The notes: generated by a model not told the origin, from the letters alone. A stretch of 41,085 nucleotides of DNA from Candidatus Aenigmatarchaeota archaeon (GCA_038998625.1 JAWADS010000004.1:1-41085), one strand, 5' to 3'; shown: positions 5,809 through 33,271, numbered from the stretch's first letter. Program-made: numbers and translations.

Positions 5809-5868
5809 ATTTTTATATTAAAAATTTTAAAAACAAATCCTTATAGCATAAAATAAAAGGTGAAAATT

Positions 5869-8070
5869 TTGGTAAAGAAAGAAATGTTTGAAAGAATTAA
5901 AGAGGTAATGAAAGATCCGAGTAGAATTAGAAATATTGCGACTAGCAGCCATGTTCATCATGGAAAAACAACCCTTACAGATAATTTAGCGGCATTGGCA
6001 GGAATGATTTCAGAGAAAGTTGCTGGTGATGTAGAGTCTGGAATGCTTACTTGGTTTGATGAGCAAGAGAGAAAAAGACAACTAACCATTTATGGAGCAA
6101 ATGTAAGCATGGTTCATGAATATGAAGGTAAAGATTATTTGATAAATTTAGTGGATACTCCTGGTCATGTAGATTTTGGGGGCGACGTAACAAGAGCTAT
6201 GAGGGCTGTAGATGGTACTATTGTTTTGATTGATGCAGTAGAGGGGATAATGCCACAAACTGAAACTGTTTTTCGTCAGGCTTTAAGGGAATATGTCAAG
6301 CCTGTATTATTCATTAATAAGACTGATAGATTAATAAGAGAATTAAAGTTAACCCCACAACAAATGCAAGAAAGATTTGAGACCTTAATTAAAGAGGTAA
6401 ATGAATTAATTCAAAAGTATGCGCCGCCTGAATTTAAAAATAAGTGGTTGGTTAGCGTAATGGATGGGACAGTTGCCTTTGGTTCTGCATTTCGTAAATG
6501 GGCTATATCCATTCCTTTTATGCAAAAAACTGGAATAACTTTCAAGGATATAATAAATTTAACTCTAGAAGGAAGGGAAGAGGAGTTGGCTAAAAAAGCT
6601 CCACTCCATCAAGTGGTTTTGGATATGATTATAAAACATTTGCCCAGCCCTATGGAAGCGCAAAAGTATAGATTGCCAAAAATTTGGAAAGGTGATTTAA
6701 ATTCTGAAATTGGAAGACAAATGTTAGCCGTAGACCCCAACGGTCATTTAGCGGCAATTGTAACAAAAATGGTTCCTGATCCGCATATCGGATTTGCTGC
6801 TACTGCCAGAATATTTTCCGGAAAGATTTATAAAGGTAAGGAAGTTTATTTGGTGGGACAAAGAAAGAAAGAAAAGATTCAAGTGGTTGCTATATACAAA
6901 GGTATAGAAAGGATACCTGTAGAAGAAGTGACTGCAGGTAATATAGCAGCTATTGTTGGAATACCTGATGCCTTTACTGGTGAAACTGTTTGCGATGCTG
7001 ATTATATTATCGACCCTTTTGAGGAGATCAAGCATCTTTATGAGCCAGTTGTCACTAAATCTATAGAACCAAAAAATCCTATGGAATTGCCTAAGTTAGT
7101 AGATATGCTTAAAAAAATTGCTAGGGAAGATGTAACCCTTGTTGTGAAAATAAATCAAGAAACTGGAGAATATCTGGTATCTGGTTTAGGAGAACTACAT
7201 TTAGAAGCAAAAGTTGAAAATAAATTAAAAGAACTAGGAATAGAAGTGGAAATGTCTAAACCAATAGTTGTTTATCGTGAATACATATCGCAACCAGGGC
7301 CTGTTGTAGAAGGCAAGTCTCCAAATAAGCACAACAAGCTTTACATATCTGTGGAGCCATTGGAGGATGGGGTTTATAAAGCTATGTTGGAAGGAGAGAT
7401 TCCTAGTGAAATTGAGCCGAAAACAAAGCACTTAGAATTATTTAAAAAGTTAAGCCAGTATGGTATGAATTACGACGAGGCCAAAAATACCATCCTAATC
7501 CATAATAAAAATATACTTTTAGATCTAACAAAAGGTGTGCAATTTATGAATGAAATTATAGAAATGGTTAAGGATGCATTTGTTGAAATGATGGATGAAG
7601 GACCTTTGGCAAAGGAGCCTTGCACCAAATTAAAAGTTAAAATAATTGATGCGGATTTGCATGAAGATCCAGTGCATCGTGGCCCTGGACAAATAATGCC
7701 TGCTGTGAGATGGTGTATAAGAGAAAGTATGTTAAGATCTGGAATTGTTCTTTTAGAACCAAAACAAATTATAAGGATTGATGTGCCAAGCGAATTAATA
7801 GGAGAAGTTATAAGAGAGGTGGAAAATAGAAGAGGCCAAATTTTGGATATAAGAGAAGAGAGGGGCGCCACAGTTATCACTGCTAAGATGCCTGTAAGTG
7901 ATATGTTTGGTTTTGATGCTGCCTTAAAATCAGCTACCAGTGGGAGAGGTTTCTATAGTTTGATAGAAGTTAGTTTTGAAAAATTGCCTACAGAGCTATT
8001 TGAAAAAACTGTTAAAGAAATAAGGAAAAGAAAAGGTCTTCCTGAGCAGATACCGAAACCTGAAGGATGA
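5869..8070 (+). CDS. fusA: Elongation factor EF-2
   Basis: DTPGHVDF, NKTD, diphthamide loop HEDPVHRGPGQ; likely TTG start at 5869 after GGTGA SD (ORF open from 5860). Confidence 0.98.
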   Translation: MVKKEMFERIKEVMKDPSRIRNIATSSHVHHGKTTLTDNLAALAGMISEKVAGDVESGMLTWFDEQERKRQLTIYGANVSMVHEYEGKDYLINLVDTPGHVDFGGDVTRAMRAVDGTIVLIDAVEGIMPQTETVFRQALREYVKPVLFINKTDRLIRELKLTPQQMQERFETLIKEVNELIQKYAPPEFKNKWLVSVMDGTVAFGSAFRKWAISIPFMQKTGITFKDIINLTLEGREEELAKKAPLHQVVLDMIIKHLPSPMEAQKYRLPKIWKGDLNSEIGRQMLAVDPNGHLAAIVTKMVPDPHIGFAATARIFSGKIYKGKEVYLVGQRKKEKIQVVAIYKGIERIPVEEVTAGNIAAIVGIPDAFTGETVCDADYIIDPFEEIKHLYEPVVTKSIEPKNPMELPKLVDMLKKIAREDVTLVVKINQETGEYLVSGLGELHLEAKVENKLKELGIEVEMSKPIVVYREYISQPGPVVEGKSPNKHNKLYISVEPLEDGVYKAMLEGEIPSEIEPKTKHLELFKKLSQYGMNYDEAKNTILIHNKNILLDLTKGVQFMNEIIEMVKDAFVEMMDEGPLAKEPCTKLKVKIIDADLHEDPVHRGPGQIMPAVRWCIRESMLRSGIVLLEPKQIIRIDVPSELIGEVIREVENRRGQILDIREERGATVITAKMPVSDMFGFDAALKSATSGRGFYSLIEVSFEKLPTELFEKTVKEIRKRKGLPEQIPKPEG

Positions 8071-15081: not shown

Positions 15082-15105
15082 ATTTAGTTTAAGTTATTTT
15101 TAGAT

Positions 15106-15189
15106 GGGCCGGTAGATCAATGGTAGATCGCCGCTTCGGCAATTATACTGGGTAGGCGGAGGCTCCGGGTTCGAATCCCGGCCGGTCCA
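15106..15189 (+). tRNA. tRNA-Ala(GGC) with 12-nt intron at 37/38 (15142-15153)
   Basis: Acceptor GGGCCGG/CCGGTCC with G3:U70, TTCGAAT T-loop, anticodon GGC 15138-15140, BHB helix TCGG/CTGG. Confidence 0.88.
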
Positions 15190-15351
15190 TTAAGCTTTAA
15201 GTAATAGTATTAAAAAAACATGATGATATAATGCTAAGGTTAGATCCAAAAACTTTAGGATTTCTTGTTAAAAGATTAATGCAACTGAAATTGGGGAAAA
15301 GAAGTTAGAAAAATTAGTTAAAAAAAGTTTATTGATACCTAAAATATACTT

Positions 15352-20173: not shown

Positions 20174-20215
20174 AAACTTTTATCTTTAAAATTGAAATTA
20201 TATCATAGGTTTCTT

Positions 20216-22417
20216 ATGGGAATAAAACAATTAATTGAAAAGCAATCAGGAAAATTTACAGATGTTGACGAAGAAATTAGGGCAATTCTGGAAAAAAGAA
20301 AAACGAAAATAAAGGTTGTGGGTTGTGGTGGTGCAGGAAATAACACAATTACAAGATTGATGCAAGTTGGTATTGTTGGAGCTGAAACCATAGCAATAAA
20401 TACAGACGCTCAAGACTTGCTTTATACTGATGCTGATAAAAAAGTTTTGATTGGTAGAGAGCTTACTGGTGGATTGGGAGCTGGATCCGACCCAAAAATA
20501 GGAATGGAGGCTGCAAGAGAAAATAAGGAGGATATTAAGAAAGCCCTACAAGGGGCTGATATGGTTTTTCTTACTTGCGGTTTGGGTGGCGGATGCCTAA
20601 GAGGCAGTTCTTTAATATACACCAATCCTCATGGACCTGTAAGGATAGATTCGATAAAACCTAATTCCTTTGTGTATTCTCTTGAAGGAGATAAGCTTGT
20701 GAAAAAACGTGTTATTGCTGCTATGAAAACTGGAGTCAAAAGAGTATTTGAAATTAAAACAAACAATAACACATTAGTTGCTTCTTACGATCATCCTTTC
20801 TTAAAAGTAGTGCCAGAGAAAACAGATTATCGAGGTAGATTTCATAGATTTAGTTTCGAGTGGGTAGGAGCAGAGTCTTTGAAACCAGGCGATTTGGTTG
20901 TTATTTTGAGAAAGGTACCAGAAAGTACAGAAACTATACTCGATGATAATTTCATTGCAACAAAAAACTTTTGTAGACTGTTTGGATTTTTATTAGGTAA
21001 CGGATGGGTATCAAAAAGTAAAGGCATTTGGGCAATTCATTTTTCACCTTCACAATATGAAGAATTGAATAAAAAATACATATCGCTTATAAAAGAAGTT
21101 TTTGGCCTTGAAATGAAAAGAGGTACTAATTGGTATTATGCACATTCTAAACGAGTTTGTGAACTTTTATGGAAACTGGGATTAGATAAACATGCCAAAG
21201 AAAAAGAAATCCCTTCATGGGTATTTGAATTACCCGATTCTCATAAAAAAGAATTTATTCTTGGTCTTGCTGATGCAGATGGTTATTATTATAAAAGAAC
21301 AAAAGCAAATGGAAAAGAGCATATTCAACTTAGATTTGAAATGAGTAGCGAAAAGCTTATTCGGCAATTGAAAGTTTTGTGCGATTACCTTGGACTAAGA
21401 ACAAGTAATGTGTTATCAAGAAAGAGAGAAGTAAAACCACCTCATTCTAAACAAAAGCTAAAATTCACTTCTTGGGAGCTGAGAATTTATAAACTATATC
21501 AACTTAACGAATCCTTAGAAAAGTCAAGAGAGCGAAAAGGCATAGGATTCCTATGCGGATACAGGGGACCTACTAATTCTGAATTCTTTAAAAACTTTGG
21601 TTTTGCAAGAATCAAGTCTGTCAAATACTTAGGCGAAGAAGAAGTTTATGATATAACTGTAGAAGGTAGCCATAATTTTGTTGCAGAAGGTTTTCTTGTA
21701 CATAACACGGGTTCAGGTTCTATTCCAGTAGTAGCGGAAATTGCAAAAAAATTGGGAGCTTTGACAGTAGCTGTTGTTACATTGCCATTTAGCATGGAAG
21801 GAAGACATAGAATAGAAAACGCGAGATTTGGTTTAGAGAATCTGGAAAATTTAGTAGATACTTTAATCGTTATACCCAATGATAAGCTATTGGAAGTTGT
21901 GCCCGATGTTTCTCTAGCTACTGCTTTTAAAGTTTGTGATGAAATTTTAGTTAACGCAGTGAAAGGAATAACTGAACTCGTTACTAGGCCTGGCTTAGTT
22001 AATTTAGATTTTGCTGATGTTAAAGCTGTTATGAGCCAAGGAGGCTTGGCCATGATTGGTATGGGGGAGAGTGATACAGAAAACAGAGCAGTAGAATCTG
22101 TAGAAAAAGCTTTAAACAATCCGCTGATAACAGTAGAAATAGAGGGAGCGAAGGGGGCATTGGTGAATGTAAGTGGTGGGCCCGATATAACGATAAAAGA
22201 AGCTCAGAAAATAGTTGAAATGGTTTCTAGTAGATTGTCCGAAGATGCAAAGGTAATTTGGGGTGCTGTTGTAGATAAATCTTTAGGGGATAGCATTAGA
22301 ACATTGGTAATTGTAACTGGAGTTAAATCTCCACAAATCTTCGGACCAGAAAGACCATGGTCAAAAGAAAAGAAAAAAGATGTAGAAAAAATTTTAGGTA
22401 TAGAATTTTTAGAGTAA
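20216..22417 (+). CDS. ftsZ: Cell division protein FtsZ precursor containing an intein (about 362 aa after splicing)
   Basis: VVGCGGAGNN, INTDAQ, GLGGG|intein|TGSG, NLDFADV; ftsZ-secE-spt5 synteny. Confidence 0.97.
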   Translation: MGIKQLIEKQSGKFTDVDEEIRAILEKRKTKIKVVGCGGAGNNTITRLMQVGIVGAETIAINTDAQDLLYTDADKKVLIGRELTGGLGAGSDPKIGMEAARENKEDIKKALQGADMVFLTCGLGGGCLRGSSLIYTNPHGPVRIDSIKPNSFVYSLEGDKLVKKRVIAAMKTGVKRVFEIKTNNNTLVASYDHPFLKVVPEKTDYRGRFHRFSFEWVGAESLKPGDLVVILRKVPESTETILDDNFIATKNFCRLFGFLLGNGWVSKSKGIWAIHFSPSQYEELNKKYISLIKEVFGLEMKRGTNWYYAHSKRVCELLWKLGLDKHAKEKEIPSWVFELPDSHKKEFILGLADADGYYYKRTKANGKEHIQLRFEMSSEKLIRQLKVLCDYLGLRTSNVLSRKREVKPPHSKQKLKFTSWELRIYKLYQLNESLEKSRERKGIGFLCGYRGPTNSEFFKNFGFARIKSVKYLGEEEVYDITVEGSHNFVAEGFLVHNTGSGSIPVVAEIAKKLGALTVAVVTLPFSMEGRHRIENARFGLENLENLVDTLIVIPNDKLLEVVPDVSLATAFKVCDEILVNAVKGITELVTRPGLVNLDFADVKAVMSQGGLAMIGMGESDTENRAVESVEKALNNPLITVEIEGAKGALVNVSGGPDITIKEAQKIVEMVSSRLSEDAKVIWGAVVDKSLGDSIRTLVIVTGVKSPQIFGPERPWSKEKKKDVEKILGIEFLE
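20594..21706 (+). mobile_element. Intein (371 aa) with LAGLIDADG homing endonuclease domain
   Basis: N-terminal C1 (CLRGSS), block B SYDHPF, GFLLGNG and LGLADADG motifs, C-terminal VYDITV..HNFVAEGFLVHN, +1 Thr. Confidence 0.96.
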
Positions 22418-24252: not shown

Positions 24253-24999
24253 ATGAAGAAAAGTGAAAAAATCGAATTTGCTAAAAAATTGAAGGAAGAT
24301 ATGAAAAAGTATCAAACCATAGGAATAGCCAATCTGTTTAAATTTCCAACAAAAGCTTTACAAACTGTTAGGAGAGAACTAAAAGATGACTTGAAAATAA
24401 AAGTGGTGAAGAAATCTTTGATTCTAAGGGTATTAAATGAAATTAATGAAAAAGATTTGGAAAAAATAATAACAAATCAATTGGCCTTGATTTTTTCAAA
24501 TGAAGATCCTTTTAAGCTCTTTGCTAAAATTAGTAAGATAAAAACGCAGATGTTTGCAAAGGAAGGAGATATAGCTGATGAGGATATTTTAATAAAAGCT
24601 GGTCCTACTGATTTAAATCCAGGCCCTGTTATAAGCGAGTTTGCAAAAGCTAAAATTCCGGCAGGTGTTGAAGGAGGTAAAATTGCAATAAAAAAAGATA
24701 CAATAGTTGCAAAAAAAGGAGATAAAATTTCTAAAGAGTTGGCTTCTATACTAAGGAAATTAAAAATCAAACCTATAAAGAAAAGTTTAGAGATTGTTGG
24801 TATTTATTCAAATGGTCAGTTGTATAGTAAAGAAGCTTTAGATTTAGTTAATGAAGTCCCCATGTTGTTAATGCAGGCAAAACAAAAAGCATTAAATCTT
24901 TCTATTTTTATTTTATACCCAACAAAAGATAATATATCATTTTTGCTATCTAAGGCTTATAATTATGCCAAAATTTTAGAAGAAAAATTGGAGGTGTAA
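24253..24999 (+). CDS. rpl10: 50S ribosomal protein uL10 (P0), lacking C-terminal hinge and acidic tail
   Basis: Domain II AGPTDLNPGP..KI.I.KD; spine helices around YPT; synteny. Confidence 0.93.
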   Translation: MKKSEKIEFAKKLKEDMKKYQTIGIANLFKFPTKALQTVRRELKDDLKIKVVKKSLILRVLNEINEKDLEKIITNQLALIFSNEDPFKLFAKISKIKTQMFAKEGDIADEDILIKAGPTDLNPGPVISEFAKAKIPAGVEGGKIAIKKDTIVAKKGDKISKELASILRKLKIKPIKKSLEIVGIYSNGQLYSKEALDLVNEVPMLLMQAKQKALNLSIFILYPTKDNISFLLSKAYNYAKILEEKLEV

Positions 25000-25004
25000 G
25001 TTGA

Positions 25005-25322
25005 ATGGAATATATATATGCGACCCTCTTGCTGCACTCTGCAAAATTACCAATTACAGAAGAAAACATTAATAAAATTTTATCTTCAGTAGGTATAACA
25101 CCAGACCCTGCAAAAGTAAAAGCTGTAGTGACAAGCCTAGAAAATGTAAATATGGATGAGATATTGCAGCAGGCAGCAGTAGCAGTAGCCGCACCAACCA
25201 AAACAGAAGAAAAGAAGAAGGAGGAGAAGGAGGAAGAAGGTAAGAAAGCTGAAGAAGCTGCAGCGGGTCATTTAACTTTAGTTATGGGAAGTTAAACCCG
25301 AATCTCAGCTTTATTTGGCTGA
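25005..25322 (+). CDS. rpl12: Ribosomal stalk protein P1/L12, spliced: exon 1 25005-25269 + exon 2 25303-25322 (94 aa, ends AAAGLSALFG)
   Basis: MEYIYATLLLH N-terminus, Ala/Glu-rich hinge; conserved tail restored only after removing the BHB intron. Confidence 0.93.
25270..25302 (+). other. 33-nt archaeal BHB intron in rpl12 mRNA
   Basis: Central helix CGGG/CCCG, 3-nt bulges TCA and AAT, inner stem TTTAACTT/AAGTTAAA, outer stem AGCTG(C)AG/CTCAGCT; contains in-frame TAA. Confidence 0.9.
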
Positions 25323-25394
25323 TGATGCCTTCTATCCCCAACTTATTTAGAAGTATCTATAAAATTAATAAATTACTAAAAATGTTGATAAAAA

Positions 25395-26030
25395 ATGGAA
25401 AAAATAATAGAATTGGCCAATCAGATAAAAGATGAAAATTTAAGAAAAAAGGTAATAGAATTTATAAAAAATCCTACTCTAAGCCATAAAGATTTCAAAA
25501 AATACCCAAGAACAGAAATGAAAGATGTTAAAACTCTTTTTTCAGTAGGTAGAGTTACTGCAGAAAGAGATTTGTTGAATCATACTATAACTGTAACTGA
25601 AACTTGTATTGCTATAGCTGATATACTTCAGAAAAATTACGGTATTCCTATAAACAAAGATTATTTAATAGCTGGTTCGTTGCTTCATGATATAATGAAA
25701 ATGTTTGAATGGAAAAGTCAAGGAGAAGAAGTTGAGCATAGCGGTATAACTTTAGATCATTCTTTGTTAGCTGTCGCTGAATTTTATCATAGAGGATTTC
25801 CAGAGCAAGTCATCCATATGATTGCTTCCCATCTACAAGGCGAATCAGGACCTACACCGCCAAGAAATTTTGAAGCATTGATTTTGTATTATGTTGATAC
25901 TTTACTTTCTTTAACAGAATTTCATTGGAATGTTATAAATAAACCAAAACCAAAATATCCTGTAATTCTTTTAGATGAAGAAACAATTAAAAAACTTGGT
26001 GAAAAGACTGAAGAGAGAGAAGAAAAATGA
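25395..26030 (+). CDS. HD-domain phosphohydrolase
   Basis: LLNHT...LLHD...DH...IASH...YVD. Confidence 0.88.
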   Translation: MEKIIELANQIKDENLRKKVIEFIKNPTLSHKDFKKYPRTEMKDVKTLFSVGRVTAERDLLNHTITVTETCIAIADILQKNYGIPINKDYLIAGSLLHDIMKMFEWKSQGEEVEHSGITLDHSLLAVAEFYHRGFPEQVIHMIASHLQGESGPTPPRNFEALILYYVDTLLSLTEFHWNVINKPKPKYPVILLDEETIKKLGEKTEEREEK

Positions 26031-32947: not shown

Positions 32948-33111
32948 TATGGAAGTAGGTGATAAATGAAAAATTTCACTCTTGCTACAAAAAATTTTTA
33001 TAGAGCATCTTTAATTGATGATAATTTGTTCGATGAAGGATTAAATTTTTATCTAATTTTGATGAAAAAGATACATGTATTGATTTTAAAAATTATTCCT
33101 AAAAATTTTAT

Positions 33112-33200
33112 GGGGTCGTCGTCTAGCTTGGTTTAGGACACGAGCTTCGGGCGTTCGAAAGGTTTGCCGAAAAACCTGGGTTCAAATCCCAGCGGCCCCA
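33112..33200 (+). tRNA. tRNA-Pro(CGG) with 14-nt intron in the variable loop (33160-33173, position 45/46)
   Basis: GGGGTCG/CGGCCCC acceptor, CGAGC-TT-CGG-GC-GTTCG arm, BHB helix TTCG/CGAA with AAA bulges; the spliced variable loop is AAAC. Confidence 0.88.
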
Positions 33201-33271
33201 TCCAAAATTCAATGAAACTTATTGTGTTTAAACCTATGAATAAGTTGGTTTTAAAGTTAGTAAAGGTTAAG

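Follow-up and report, generated by a model that had tools for sequence, protein, structure and literature searches.

The ribosomal stalk locus

The analysed stretch of DNA (the window; 41,085 nt, GCA_038998625.1, JAWADS010000004.1:1-41085, Candidatus Aenigmatarchaeota archaeon, genome G000) contains an archaeal stalk cluster, in which an L10/P0 ORF (24253-24999) is followed by the gene of stalk protein P1 (aP1/L12e), starting at 25005. Read without splicing, P1 is an ORF of 96 aa (25005-25295; C-terminal sequences are given here up to the stop codon: AAAGHLTLVMGS, in a longer excerpt ...EEGKKAEEAAAGHLTLVMGS). The Pfam profile Ribosomal_60s matches the unspliced ORF (E 5.2e-10) over residues 17-84, aligned with profile positions 2-74 out of 88, which leaves the conserved tail end without a match. 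Excision of 25270-25302 (33 nt) gives GGT CTC TCA GCT TTA TTT GGC TGA = GLSALFG and a P1 of 94 aa, ...AAAGLSALFG; a second TGA stands behind exon 2 at 25323-25325. The insert lies eight codons ahead of the natural P1 end, its length is a multiple of three, and the reading frame is equal on both sides. The codons at the junction are rare in this genome (GCG, 6.8% of Ala; CTC, 3.1% of Leu), and the rare Ala codon GCG is used in the 5' strand of the central helix. The features are collected in Table 1.

Table 1. Features of the P1 gene and of the bulge-helix-bulge (BHB) structure, in window coordinates
Feature	Position	Strand	Remarks
P1 (aP1/L12e) exon 1	25005..25269	+	ends at base 1 of split Leu codon C/TC
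Predicted 33-nt BHB intron	25270..25302	+	in frame: (C)AT TTA ACT TTA GTT ATG GGA AGT TAA ACC CGA A
In-frame TAA of the intron, inner-helix 3' strand	25293..25295	+	closes the unspliced ORF; same stop and place in G015
P1 exon 2	25303..25322	+	(C)TC TCA GCT TTA TTT GGC TGA = (L)SALFG, stop
Outer (exon-exon) helix, 5' strand AGCTG(C)AG	25256..25263	+	C25261 bulged; partner 25304-25310
Central 4-bp helix, 5' strand CGGG (exon)	25264..25267	+	partner CCCG 25297-25300 (intron)
5' bulge TCA	25268..25270	+	predicted cut after C25269
Inner hairpin	25271..25296	+	25271-25279 with 25288-25296; loop 25280-25287
3' bulge AAT	25301..25303	+	predicted cut after A25302
Outer helix, 3' strand CTCAGCT (exon 2)	25304..25310	+	partner 25256-25263

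An earlier note on this DNA had read the ORF end as AAAG-HLTLVMGS and had placed a BHB motif around the insert; this ending and every coordinate and letter of the motif are present in the sequence. Its statement that removal of 25270-25302 restores GLSALFG was confirmed, the tail matching that of 58/58 uninterrupted genes of the order, and standard annotation does miss the intron, as it had foreseen: the gene-caller ORF (25005-25295) stops before the conserved tail.

Structure of the insert and its flanks

Cleavage of a BHB takes place after the second nucleotide of each bulge; among the possible cuts at the P1 insert, only the pair predicted by this geometry (after 25269 and after 25302) restores G-L-S-A-L-F-G. 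The motif itself consists of two 3-nt bulges 4 bp apart (PMC6379350), and the G000 structure is of the canonical hBHBh' type (two opposite 3-nt bulges with a 4-bp helix between them), in which all 22 pairs form. The inner stem is made of TTTAACTT (25271-25278) and AAGTTAAA (25289-25296) and is extended by a U.G pair (25279/25288). Folding of the 67-nt stretch (RNAfold) gave −21.6 kcal/mol (z = −3.64; 0/200 shuffles as good). The minimum free energy (MFE) fold of G000 has a 5-bp central helix, formed by an extra U25268-A25296 pair (one-base slip); the canonical 4-bp register (−20.5 vs −21.3 kcal/mol) is 0.8 kcal/mol higher. With the exons fixed and the 33 letters shuffled, a 4/4 central helix together with at least three inner pairs in register was obtained in 3 of 200,000 trials, and together with at least eight inner pairs in none.

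A loose BHB scan of the whole genome yielded 65 'strong' matches vs 63 in a Markov-shuffled genome; since the two are indistinguishable, the motif on its own proves nothing. Strict BHB matches and the tRNA introns called by ARAGORN in the genome were mostly not in agreement. The evidential weight is in the to-the-base coincidence of the motif with the structure of the gene.

P1 genes of related genomes

P1 was found in 60 of the 61 genomes of the order searched (own genome included), and all 60 3' ends were examined. Precisely at this site 58 of the 60 genes are without the insert, and all 58 uninterrupted genes carry the canonical tail (55 G-L-x-x-L-F-G; 3 ...LFGF). In the closest relative (G008) P1 ends with EEGKKAEEAAAGLSALFG, to which the spliced G000 product is identical over the last 18 residues; in the same-genus genome G001 the insert is absent (GGT TTG TCA GCT TTG TTT GGA TGA) and the downstream gene is the same. 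Pattern scans (up to 3 mismatches) returned the insert in 2/70 genomes of the family and in 2/371 genomes of the class. Among 259 collected P1 proteins (a set that includes P0121, our own translation of the G015 ORF), 250 are canonical, 5 are of the intron type and 4 have the last one or two residues extra or altered. Three further intron-type ORFs occur in the protein collection: P0122 (99% identical to G015), P0134 (..GQLTFLIGS) and P0135 (..GQLTFIIGS); they are known here as proteins alone, and the DNA comparison comprises G000 and G015.

A second allele of the insert

G015, of the same family and another genus, has a 33-nt insert at the same site, 26/33 bases of which are identical to those of G000 (79%); its unspliced ORF ends with AAAGQLTLLFGS, followed by TCTCTGCTCTCTTTGGCTGATGA. 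Exon 2 differs between the alleles at 3 bases (TCA/TCT, TTA/CTC), none of which alters an amino acid, and both alleles retain TGA TGA; the 7 bases from the intron stop to the 3' cut contain 2 changes. A relic downstream copy should decay, yet exon 2 is perfectly canonical and the upstream copy is the diverged one, which argues that exon 2 is translated. As judged from the two alleles, exon 2 is under purifying selection and hence apparently translated. Read-through of TAA could likewise bring exon 2 into protein, as an insert of 33 nt leaves the frame intact; the structure would then be left unexplained.

In the two-allele alignment 42/44 cells are standard pairs, as compared with 31-57% when the partners are slid by 1-3 columns. 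The pair 25259/25307 is changed from U-A to A-U in G015, silently, since both bases are third in their codons (Ala, Ser), and the pair 25271/25296 from U-A to G.U. The covariation score, from two DNA alleles only and with two cells unpaired, was reached by 126/500 shuffles. An alignment of rpl12 from relatives had been suggested in the earlier note as a source of intron-less alleles and compensatory changes: the former were abundant (58/60), and the latter amount to these two pairs. In a stronger control, with the register kept the same, the exon-exon helix has 7/7 pairs in both intron alleles and 0-6 (median 3) in the 58 intron-less ones, namely 0 (1 allele), 1 (5), 2 (16), 3 (18), 4 (13), 5 (4) and 6 (1).

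The G015 motif is a relaxed one: the central helix consists of 3 Watson-Crick pairs and a G.A mismatch at the fourth pair, and the canonical conformer (−12.2 vs MFE −16.7 kcal/mol) is 4.5 kcal/mol above the optimum. Cleavage of this allele would need an enzyme that tolerates relaxed motifs.

Authenticity and further copies

Positions 25242-25500 were recovered with 0 differences and 0 gaps in contigs of the public hot-spring metagenome runs X1, X2 and X3 (two studies); the run that matches this DNA best may derive from the very sample that yielded the window. The exact 96-aa ORF has been recorded from 5 contigs. The insert, unchanged in three runs and represented by a homologous allele in another genus, is therefore not an artefact, the outcome named in the earlier note as one that would refute the intron. 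A second copy of the 33-mer was not found in the 469-kb genome (best other match 18 nt, E 0.065). The metagenome scan with GGAAGTTAANNNCGAATCTCNGC gave 1 match (L036; GC-rich, unrelated), and the genome-collection scan with it gave 2, L037 (cyanobacterial, chance) and L038 (identical with the sequence of the G015 locus L021); a third DNA allele of the intron was found in neither. A MITE or multi-copy palindrome was rejected as the nature of the insert, which is single-copy, always in P1 and flanked by a direct repeat of only 2 nt (TC).

The unspliced product

The ORFs read through the 5' junction retain a tail motif. Their tails are G-H-L-T-L-V-M-G-S (G000), G-Q-L-T-L-L-F-G-S (G015, P0122), G-Q-L-T-F-L-I-G-S (P0134) and G-Q-L-T-F-I-I-G-S (P0135); the look-alike L-x-x-[VLI]-[MFI]-G-S is common to the four lineages, its spacing L-x-x-hydrophobic-hydrophobic-G is that of L-S-A-L-F-G, and all three loop-encoded positions are hydrophobic in each of them. 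The claim of the earlier note that retention yields a tail-less P1 thus found no support.

The available parts of two papers on Pyrococcus horikoshii aP1 (PMC4267659, PMC5887453) state that L103S, L106S and F107S abolish aEF-1alpha binding, that aEF-2 binding uses the same residues L103, L106 and F107, and that the C-terminal carboxylate of aP1 forms a salt bridge to aEF-1alpha; in one of them (PMC5887453, as available) G102S too abolishes EF-2 binding. The unspliced tails are spaced like L103-x-x-L106-F107-G108 of this protein, and that of G015, L-T-L-L-F-G, holds equivalents of L103, L106 and F107. The likeness has its flaws: the equivalent of G102 is displaced by the extra H/Q, and the added Ser shifts the C-terminal carboxylate. 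Complex prediction for aEF-2 (encoded at 5860-8070 of the window; residues 1-390) with unspliced P1 (residues 60-96) gave a score of 0.02 and a mark of 0.34, which is evidence neither way.

In codon register, the intron shares with the tail codons of its own gene 6/18 bases in G000, second positions accounting for 5 of these, and 10/18 in G015; the likeness to the true tail at second codon positions is 5/6 in both alleles. The two intron DNAs show 5 coding differences (H/Q, V/L, M/F), every one of them at codon position 1 or 3. The ungapped base similarity of insert and tail was matched by 592 and 311 of 5000 shuffles, i.e., it is not above chance. Taken together, the likeness of the tails hints that the retained reading is selected or that the insert is an ancient duplicate, and is not significant. 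Since a plausible tail is already present on the unspliced ORF, splicing is not strictly needed to account for a working gene.

P0 of this family appears without an LFG tail: at 27/30 loci an upstream ORF of >100 residues ends next to the P1 start (at L014, L015 and L021 the upstream P0 ORF was not found; L033, counted among the 27, has an ORF of 132 residues that stops 38 bases short of the P1 start and is a doubtful P0). With P0 tails devoid of LFG, P1 would be the only carrier of the motif.

Splicing enzymes and proposed pathway

The host genome (469 kb, 92% complete) encodes one EndA and RtcB. EndA (PF01974, 90.4 bits; 188 aa) can be aligned over its full length with M. jannaschii EndA (1a79, alpha4 type, E 4.7e-30). 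Of the triad it has Tyr and His, separated by a 6-residue basic insert, but Ala in the column where the enzymes of M. jannaschii and M. kandleri have the catalytic Lys. The match of RtcB (PF01139, 471 bits) is split within a single frame of 985 residues, an intein being the most likely cause. Genes for EndA are also present in G015, G001 and G008. ARAGORN, a heuristic, predicts introns in 17/26 tRNA genes of the genome; DPANN alpha4 EndAs with extra loops accompany heavily interrupted tRNA genes, according to the available part of PMC5829648.

From these data it is quite probable that the P1 gene carries a 33-nt archaeal BHB intron that is spliced by EndA and RtcB. In the pre-mRNA, exon 1 would form the outer helix with exon 2 and the 4-bp central helix with the 3' end of the intron, leaving two 3-nt bulges around the intron hairpin; the host EndA would cut both bulges, after 25269 and 25302, and RtcB would ligate the exons into an mRNA that reads ...AAAG-LSALFG, whose restored tail would recruit EF-2, EF-1alpha and aIF5B. 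Actual cleavage and ligation, and their efficiency, we infer from the DNA. The single metatranscriptome contig (X7, 198 nt) covers 25025-25170, its end, at about 25170-25222, falling upstream of the junction; 25171-25241 was skipped as a repeat when run contigs were placed on the window. The proposal of a BHB intron in the coding region of P1, as made in the earlier note, is supported by the comparative evidence (relatives, G015 allele, exon 2). Translation of unspliced mRNA would be tolerated because the intron encodes the look-alike L-T-[LF]-[VLI]-[MFI]-G-S.

Distribution and origin of the insert

A P1 tree was computed from 63 rows and 92 columns (tails trimmed beforehand, no rows dropped), many of its forks being unresolved. 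The intron alleles stand at three places on it: G000 beside its intron-less sister G001 (support 100/92), P0134 together with P0135, and G015 with P0122 next to G011 and G031. The well-supported branches force at least 3 changes, and a single change suffices in 0% of 200 bootstrap trees. The flanks of the insert tell otherwise than the bulk of the gene: G000 and G015 agree in 59% of the bulk, in 18/20 of the last 20 nt of exon 1 and in 17/20 of exon 2; for G015 and its sisters G011 and G031 the corresponding values are 67-70%, 10-13/20 and 9-10/20. Either the intron moved together with short exon tracts, or constraints of the BHB drove convergence. On these sequences, the insert is sporadic, has probably spread laterally and is probably not a regulatory device; its scatter, with absence even from the same-genus G001, is more in keeping with something selfish or neutral than with regulation that is conserved. 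An origin by duplication of the tail-coding segment was considered and rejected on the base similarity, which is not above shuffles (the 592 and 311 of 5000 given above); G015 still allows it.

Alternative explanations

The insert might not be spliced at all: an in-frame 33-nt insertion, possibly an old tail duplicate, would have given P1 the replacement tail LTLVMGS and a stop, the downstream SALFG being an untranslated relic and the hairpin being incidental or acting at the level of DNA or of a terminator. Such a tail is plausible as far as the unspliced products keep L-x-x-hydrophobic-hydrophobic-G in four lineages, with all three binding residues in G015, and the same allele adds to this reading by its imperfect BHB and by the 10/18 bases that its intron shares with its own tail codons. 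It is nevertheless improbable as a whole. Exon 2 is undecayed, differs only synonymously and keeps both stops, so that the translated copy would be the diverged one; the exon-exon helix reaches 7/7 solely in intron alleles, and BHB pairs are formed from rare codons; the base similarity of insert and tail does not exceed that of shuffles; G102 is displaced by H/Q, and the carboxylate is moved by Ser. Exon 2 could be reached in protein by read-through of the intron TAA as well, to give ...GS-x-TRISALFG, the frame being equal on both sides of the insert. This would account for the purifying selection seen in exon 2 and would leave unexplained the BHB fold, the pairing between the exons and the rare codons. 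The linker, moreover, differs between the alleles (TR vs YR), and we know of no signal for TAA read-through in archaea; this reading is considered extremely unlikely. Still less credence, next to none, is given to an error of assembly or a palindrome of the multi-copy kind (MITE): a perfect hairpin within an AT-rich metagenome bin invites the suspicion, against which stand the identity of the insert in three runs from two studies, the homologous allele in another genus, the single copy in 469 kb and the merely 2-nt (TC) flanking repeat.

Given splicing by EndA and RtcB, the use made of it is a separate matter. The earlier note had seen in it a switch, regulated splicing setting the ratio of tailed to 'tail-less' P1 and coupling tRNA-processing capacity to translation. 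The intron directly precedes the functional tail, P0 is without its own LFG tail in 27/30 loci, which leaves P1 as the sole carrier of the motif, and a tail swap by RtcB-type splicing has a precedent in HAC1/XBP1. The gating of translation is all the same not supported and is very unlikely, the intron occurring in 2/371 genomes of the class and being absent from the same-genus G001, the retained form not being tail-less, and no sensor being suggested by the sequence. A somewhat less remote, though still doubtful, proposal is that of an intron with dual output, in which the canonical tail would be made from spliced and a selected mimic tail from unspliced mRNA, and which would spread laterally among Aenigmatarchaeota with short co-converted exon flanks. 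If true, stalks would bear two types of tail, or would be guarded against incomplete splicing; such an arrangement would suit a nucleus-free cell, where coupled ribosomes inevitably read unspliced mRNA. Hints of it are the hydrophobic loop-encoded positions in all four lineages, the confinement of the coding differences to codon positions 1 or 3, the second-position likeness to the true tail, and the flanks, in which G015 is closer to G000 than to its own sisters.

Relation to known introns

The P1 insert is best filed, on its sequence, with the BHB pre-mRNA introns, as a probable new member of their coding-sequence kind, which is known so far only from cbf5. The BHB intron of crenarchaeotal cbf5 pre-mRNA was reportedly described by Watanabe in 2002 and Yoshinari in 2006, and the BHB introns that interrupt tRNA genes in archaea, canonical as well as relaxed, are said to have been treated by Marck and Grosjean in 2003. 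In the available part of Yokobori 2009 (PMC2738675), pre-mRNA splicing in archaea is confirmed solely for cbf5, other cases being predicted; in that of Schwarz 2020 (PMC7714728), the EndA substrates beyond tRNA and rRNA are only cbf5 and the 5' UTR of HVO_1309. A 2025 paper (PMC12397907) cites, for pre-mRNA, cbf5 work only, as far as its reference list goes, and the available text of a 2026 review (PMC13149111) leaves archaeal mRNA introns unmentioned ('cbf5' 0 times). The full-text literature, searched with most subscription journals outside it, yielded no report of a BHB intron in the gene of P1 or of another ribosomal protein; nor was support found, in the archaeal BHB-intron literature searched, for the nanoarchaeal mRNA introns that the earlier note had mentioned.

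The predicted P1 intron resembles that of cbf5 (Desulfurococcales, Sulfolobales) in being a short BHB intron in the coding sequence of a gene of the translation/RNA machinery, in its cleavage by the tRNA splicing endonuclease (presumed for P1), in its patchy occurrence, read as gain and loss, and in being regularly mis-annotated. It differs in the host gene (P1, Ribosomal_60s) and host (DPANN Aenigmatarchaeota, not Crenarchaeota), and does not belong to the cbf5 insertion family; it is much rarer (2/371 genomes), and it lies eight codons from the stop, in frame, and brings a stop that follows its look-alike of the tail. Splicing of cbf5 has been shown by experiment, whereas that of P1 is deduced from DNA comparison. 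With HVO_1309 of Haloferax volcanii it would share an mRNA as EndA substrate outside tRNA and rRNA; the HVO_1309 intron is located in the untranslated leader, leaves the protein unchanged and was confirmed in vivo and in vitro, whereas the P1 intron is in coding sequence. The motif, and presumably the enzymes, are those of the archaeal tRNA BHB introns, and the host is rich in interrupted tRNA genes; unlike there, the host RNA is an mRNA, and the outer helix comes from two coding exons instead of an anticodon stem.

The eukaryotic introns of HAC1/XBP1 are cut by IRE1 and ligated by RtcB or Trl1, RtcB being the metazoan ligase. They are likewise non-spliceosomal, structure-defined and near the 3' end, and their removal swaps the C-terminal tail; RtcB-XBP1 is named in the available part of PMC8718801. 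The nuclease is another one, however, twin stem-loops take the place of the BHB, and the stress switch is proven to be regulated, whereas regulation of P1 is not supported.

If spliced as proposed, P1 would be a rare archaeal protein-coding gene that needs RNA splicing, and a second host gene, for a ribosomal protein and in DPANN, would mean that tRNA-type splicing of mRNA is not just a crenarchaeal oddity. Gene callers would silently mis-end such genes, so that P1 would be annotated without the tail that is central to studies of factor binding. The in-frame, stop-carrying intron with its look-alike tail would make it a testable question how coupled transcription and translation cope with an mRNA intron, and raises that of whether the look-alike is itself selected. 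With its perfect BHB, the 61-nt segment is a very small and clean test substrate.

Splicing enzymes and tRNA genes

EndA endonuclease: The window's own genome (G000) holds a single EndA; its alignment with the enzymes of M. jannaschii and M. kandleri places Ala at their catalytic Lys (NIRA vs their SVRK), and a basic insert of six residues (KLKRGP) lies between the catalytic Tyr and His.

RtcB ligase: The profile was matched in two pieces (profile positions 1–51 and 49–426) separated by ca. 1.4 kb within one frame; judged from this sequence arrangement, the split most likely reflects an intein within the splicing ligase itself.

tRNA genes: At 84–94 nt, the window's two tRNA-Pro genes are unusually long; throughout G000, introns were predicted heuristically (ARAGORN) in 17 of 26 tRNA genes, often at non-canonical positions.

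Features located in the window and elsewhere in its genome
Feature	Position	Strand	Basis or remark
tRNA-Pro gene	window 15105–15190
tRNA-Pro gene	window 33111–33204
FtsZ ORF with intein, 741 aa	window 20192–22417	+	domain matches
P0 (uL10), ORF upstream of P1	window 24253–24999	+	compared with loci L005–L033
AACTT[AG]TTTAG[AC]AG motif	window 25343–25356; downstream of P1 at L021 (P1 locus of G015)		G000–G015 comparison
HD-domain protein gene, next after P1	window 25395–26030
EndA, 188 aa, alpha4-like	C1, L001:1240–1806	+	sequence alignment
RtcB, single 985-aa open frame	C12:6941–9724 (L002/L003)	-	profile match
EF-1alpha/SelB-like GTPase, 543 aa	C14, L069:14–1645	+	best EF-1alpha match

Stalk partners

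P0 (uL10) tail: Archaeal P0 usually ends in the same LFG factor-binding tail as P1. P0 is short in the window's family (ORFs upstream of P1 of 249–338 residues, stop to stop); an upstream ORF was obtained at 27 of 30 loci, and the tail was found at the P0 end in none of the 27, a count that includes the doubtful L033 (132 residues only, ending 38 bases before P1).

EF-1alpha: No protein of G000 (92%-complete assembly) scored above the curated EF-1alpha cut-offs (502–540 bits); the best match, at L069, reached 163–185 bits and carries an N-terminal extension of ca. 130 residues.

Neighboring genes

Motif downstream of P1: The motif, common to G000 and G015 (same family, other genus), is conserved ca. 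45 nt upstream of the next gene's start and may be the promoter of that HD-domain protein gene.

FtsZ intein: In the domain search, the Tubulin/FtsZ GTPase and FtsZ_C domains flanked Intein_splicing and LAGLIDADG domains (residues ca. 158–505), inserted at the glycine-rich GTP-binding loop; by this domain order, the gene is intein-interrupted.
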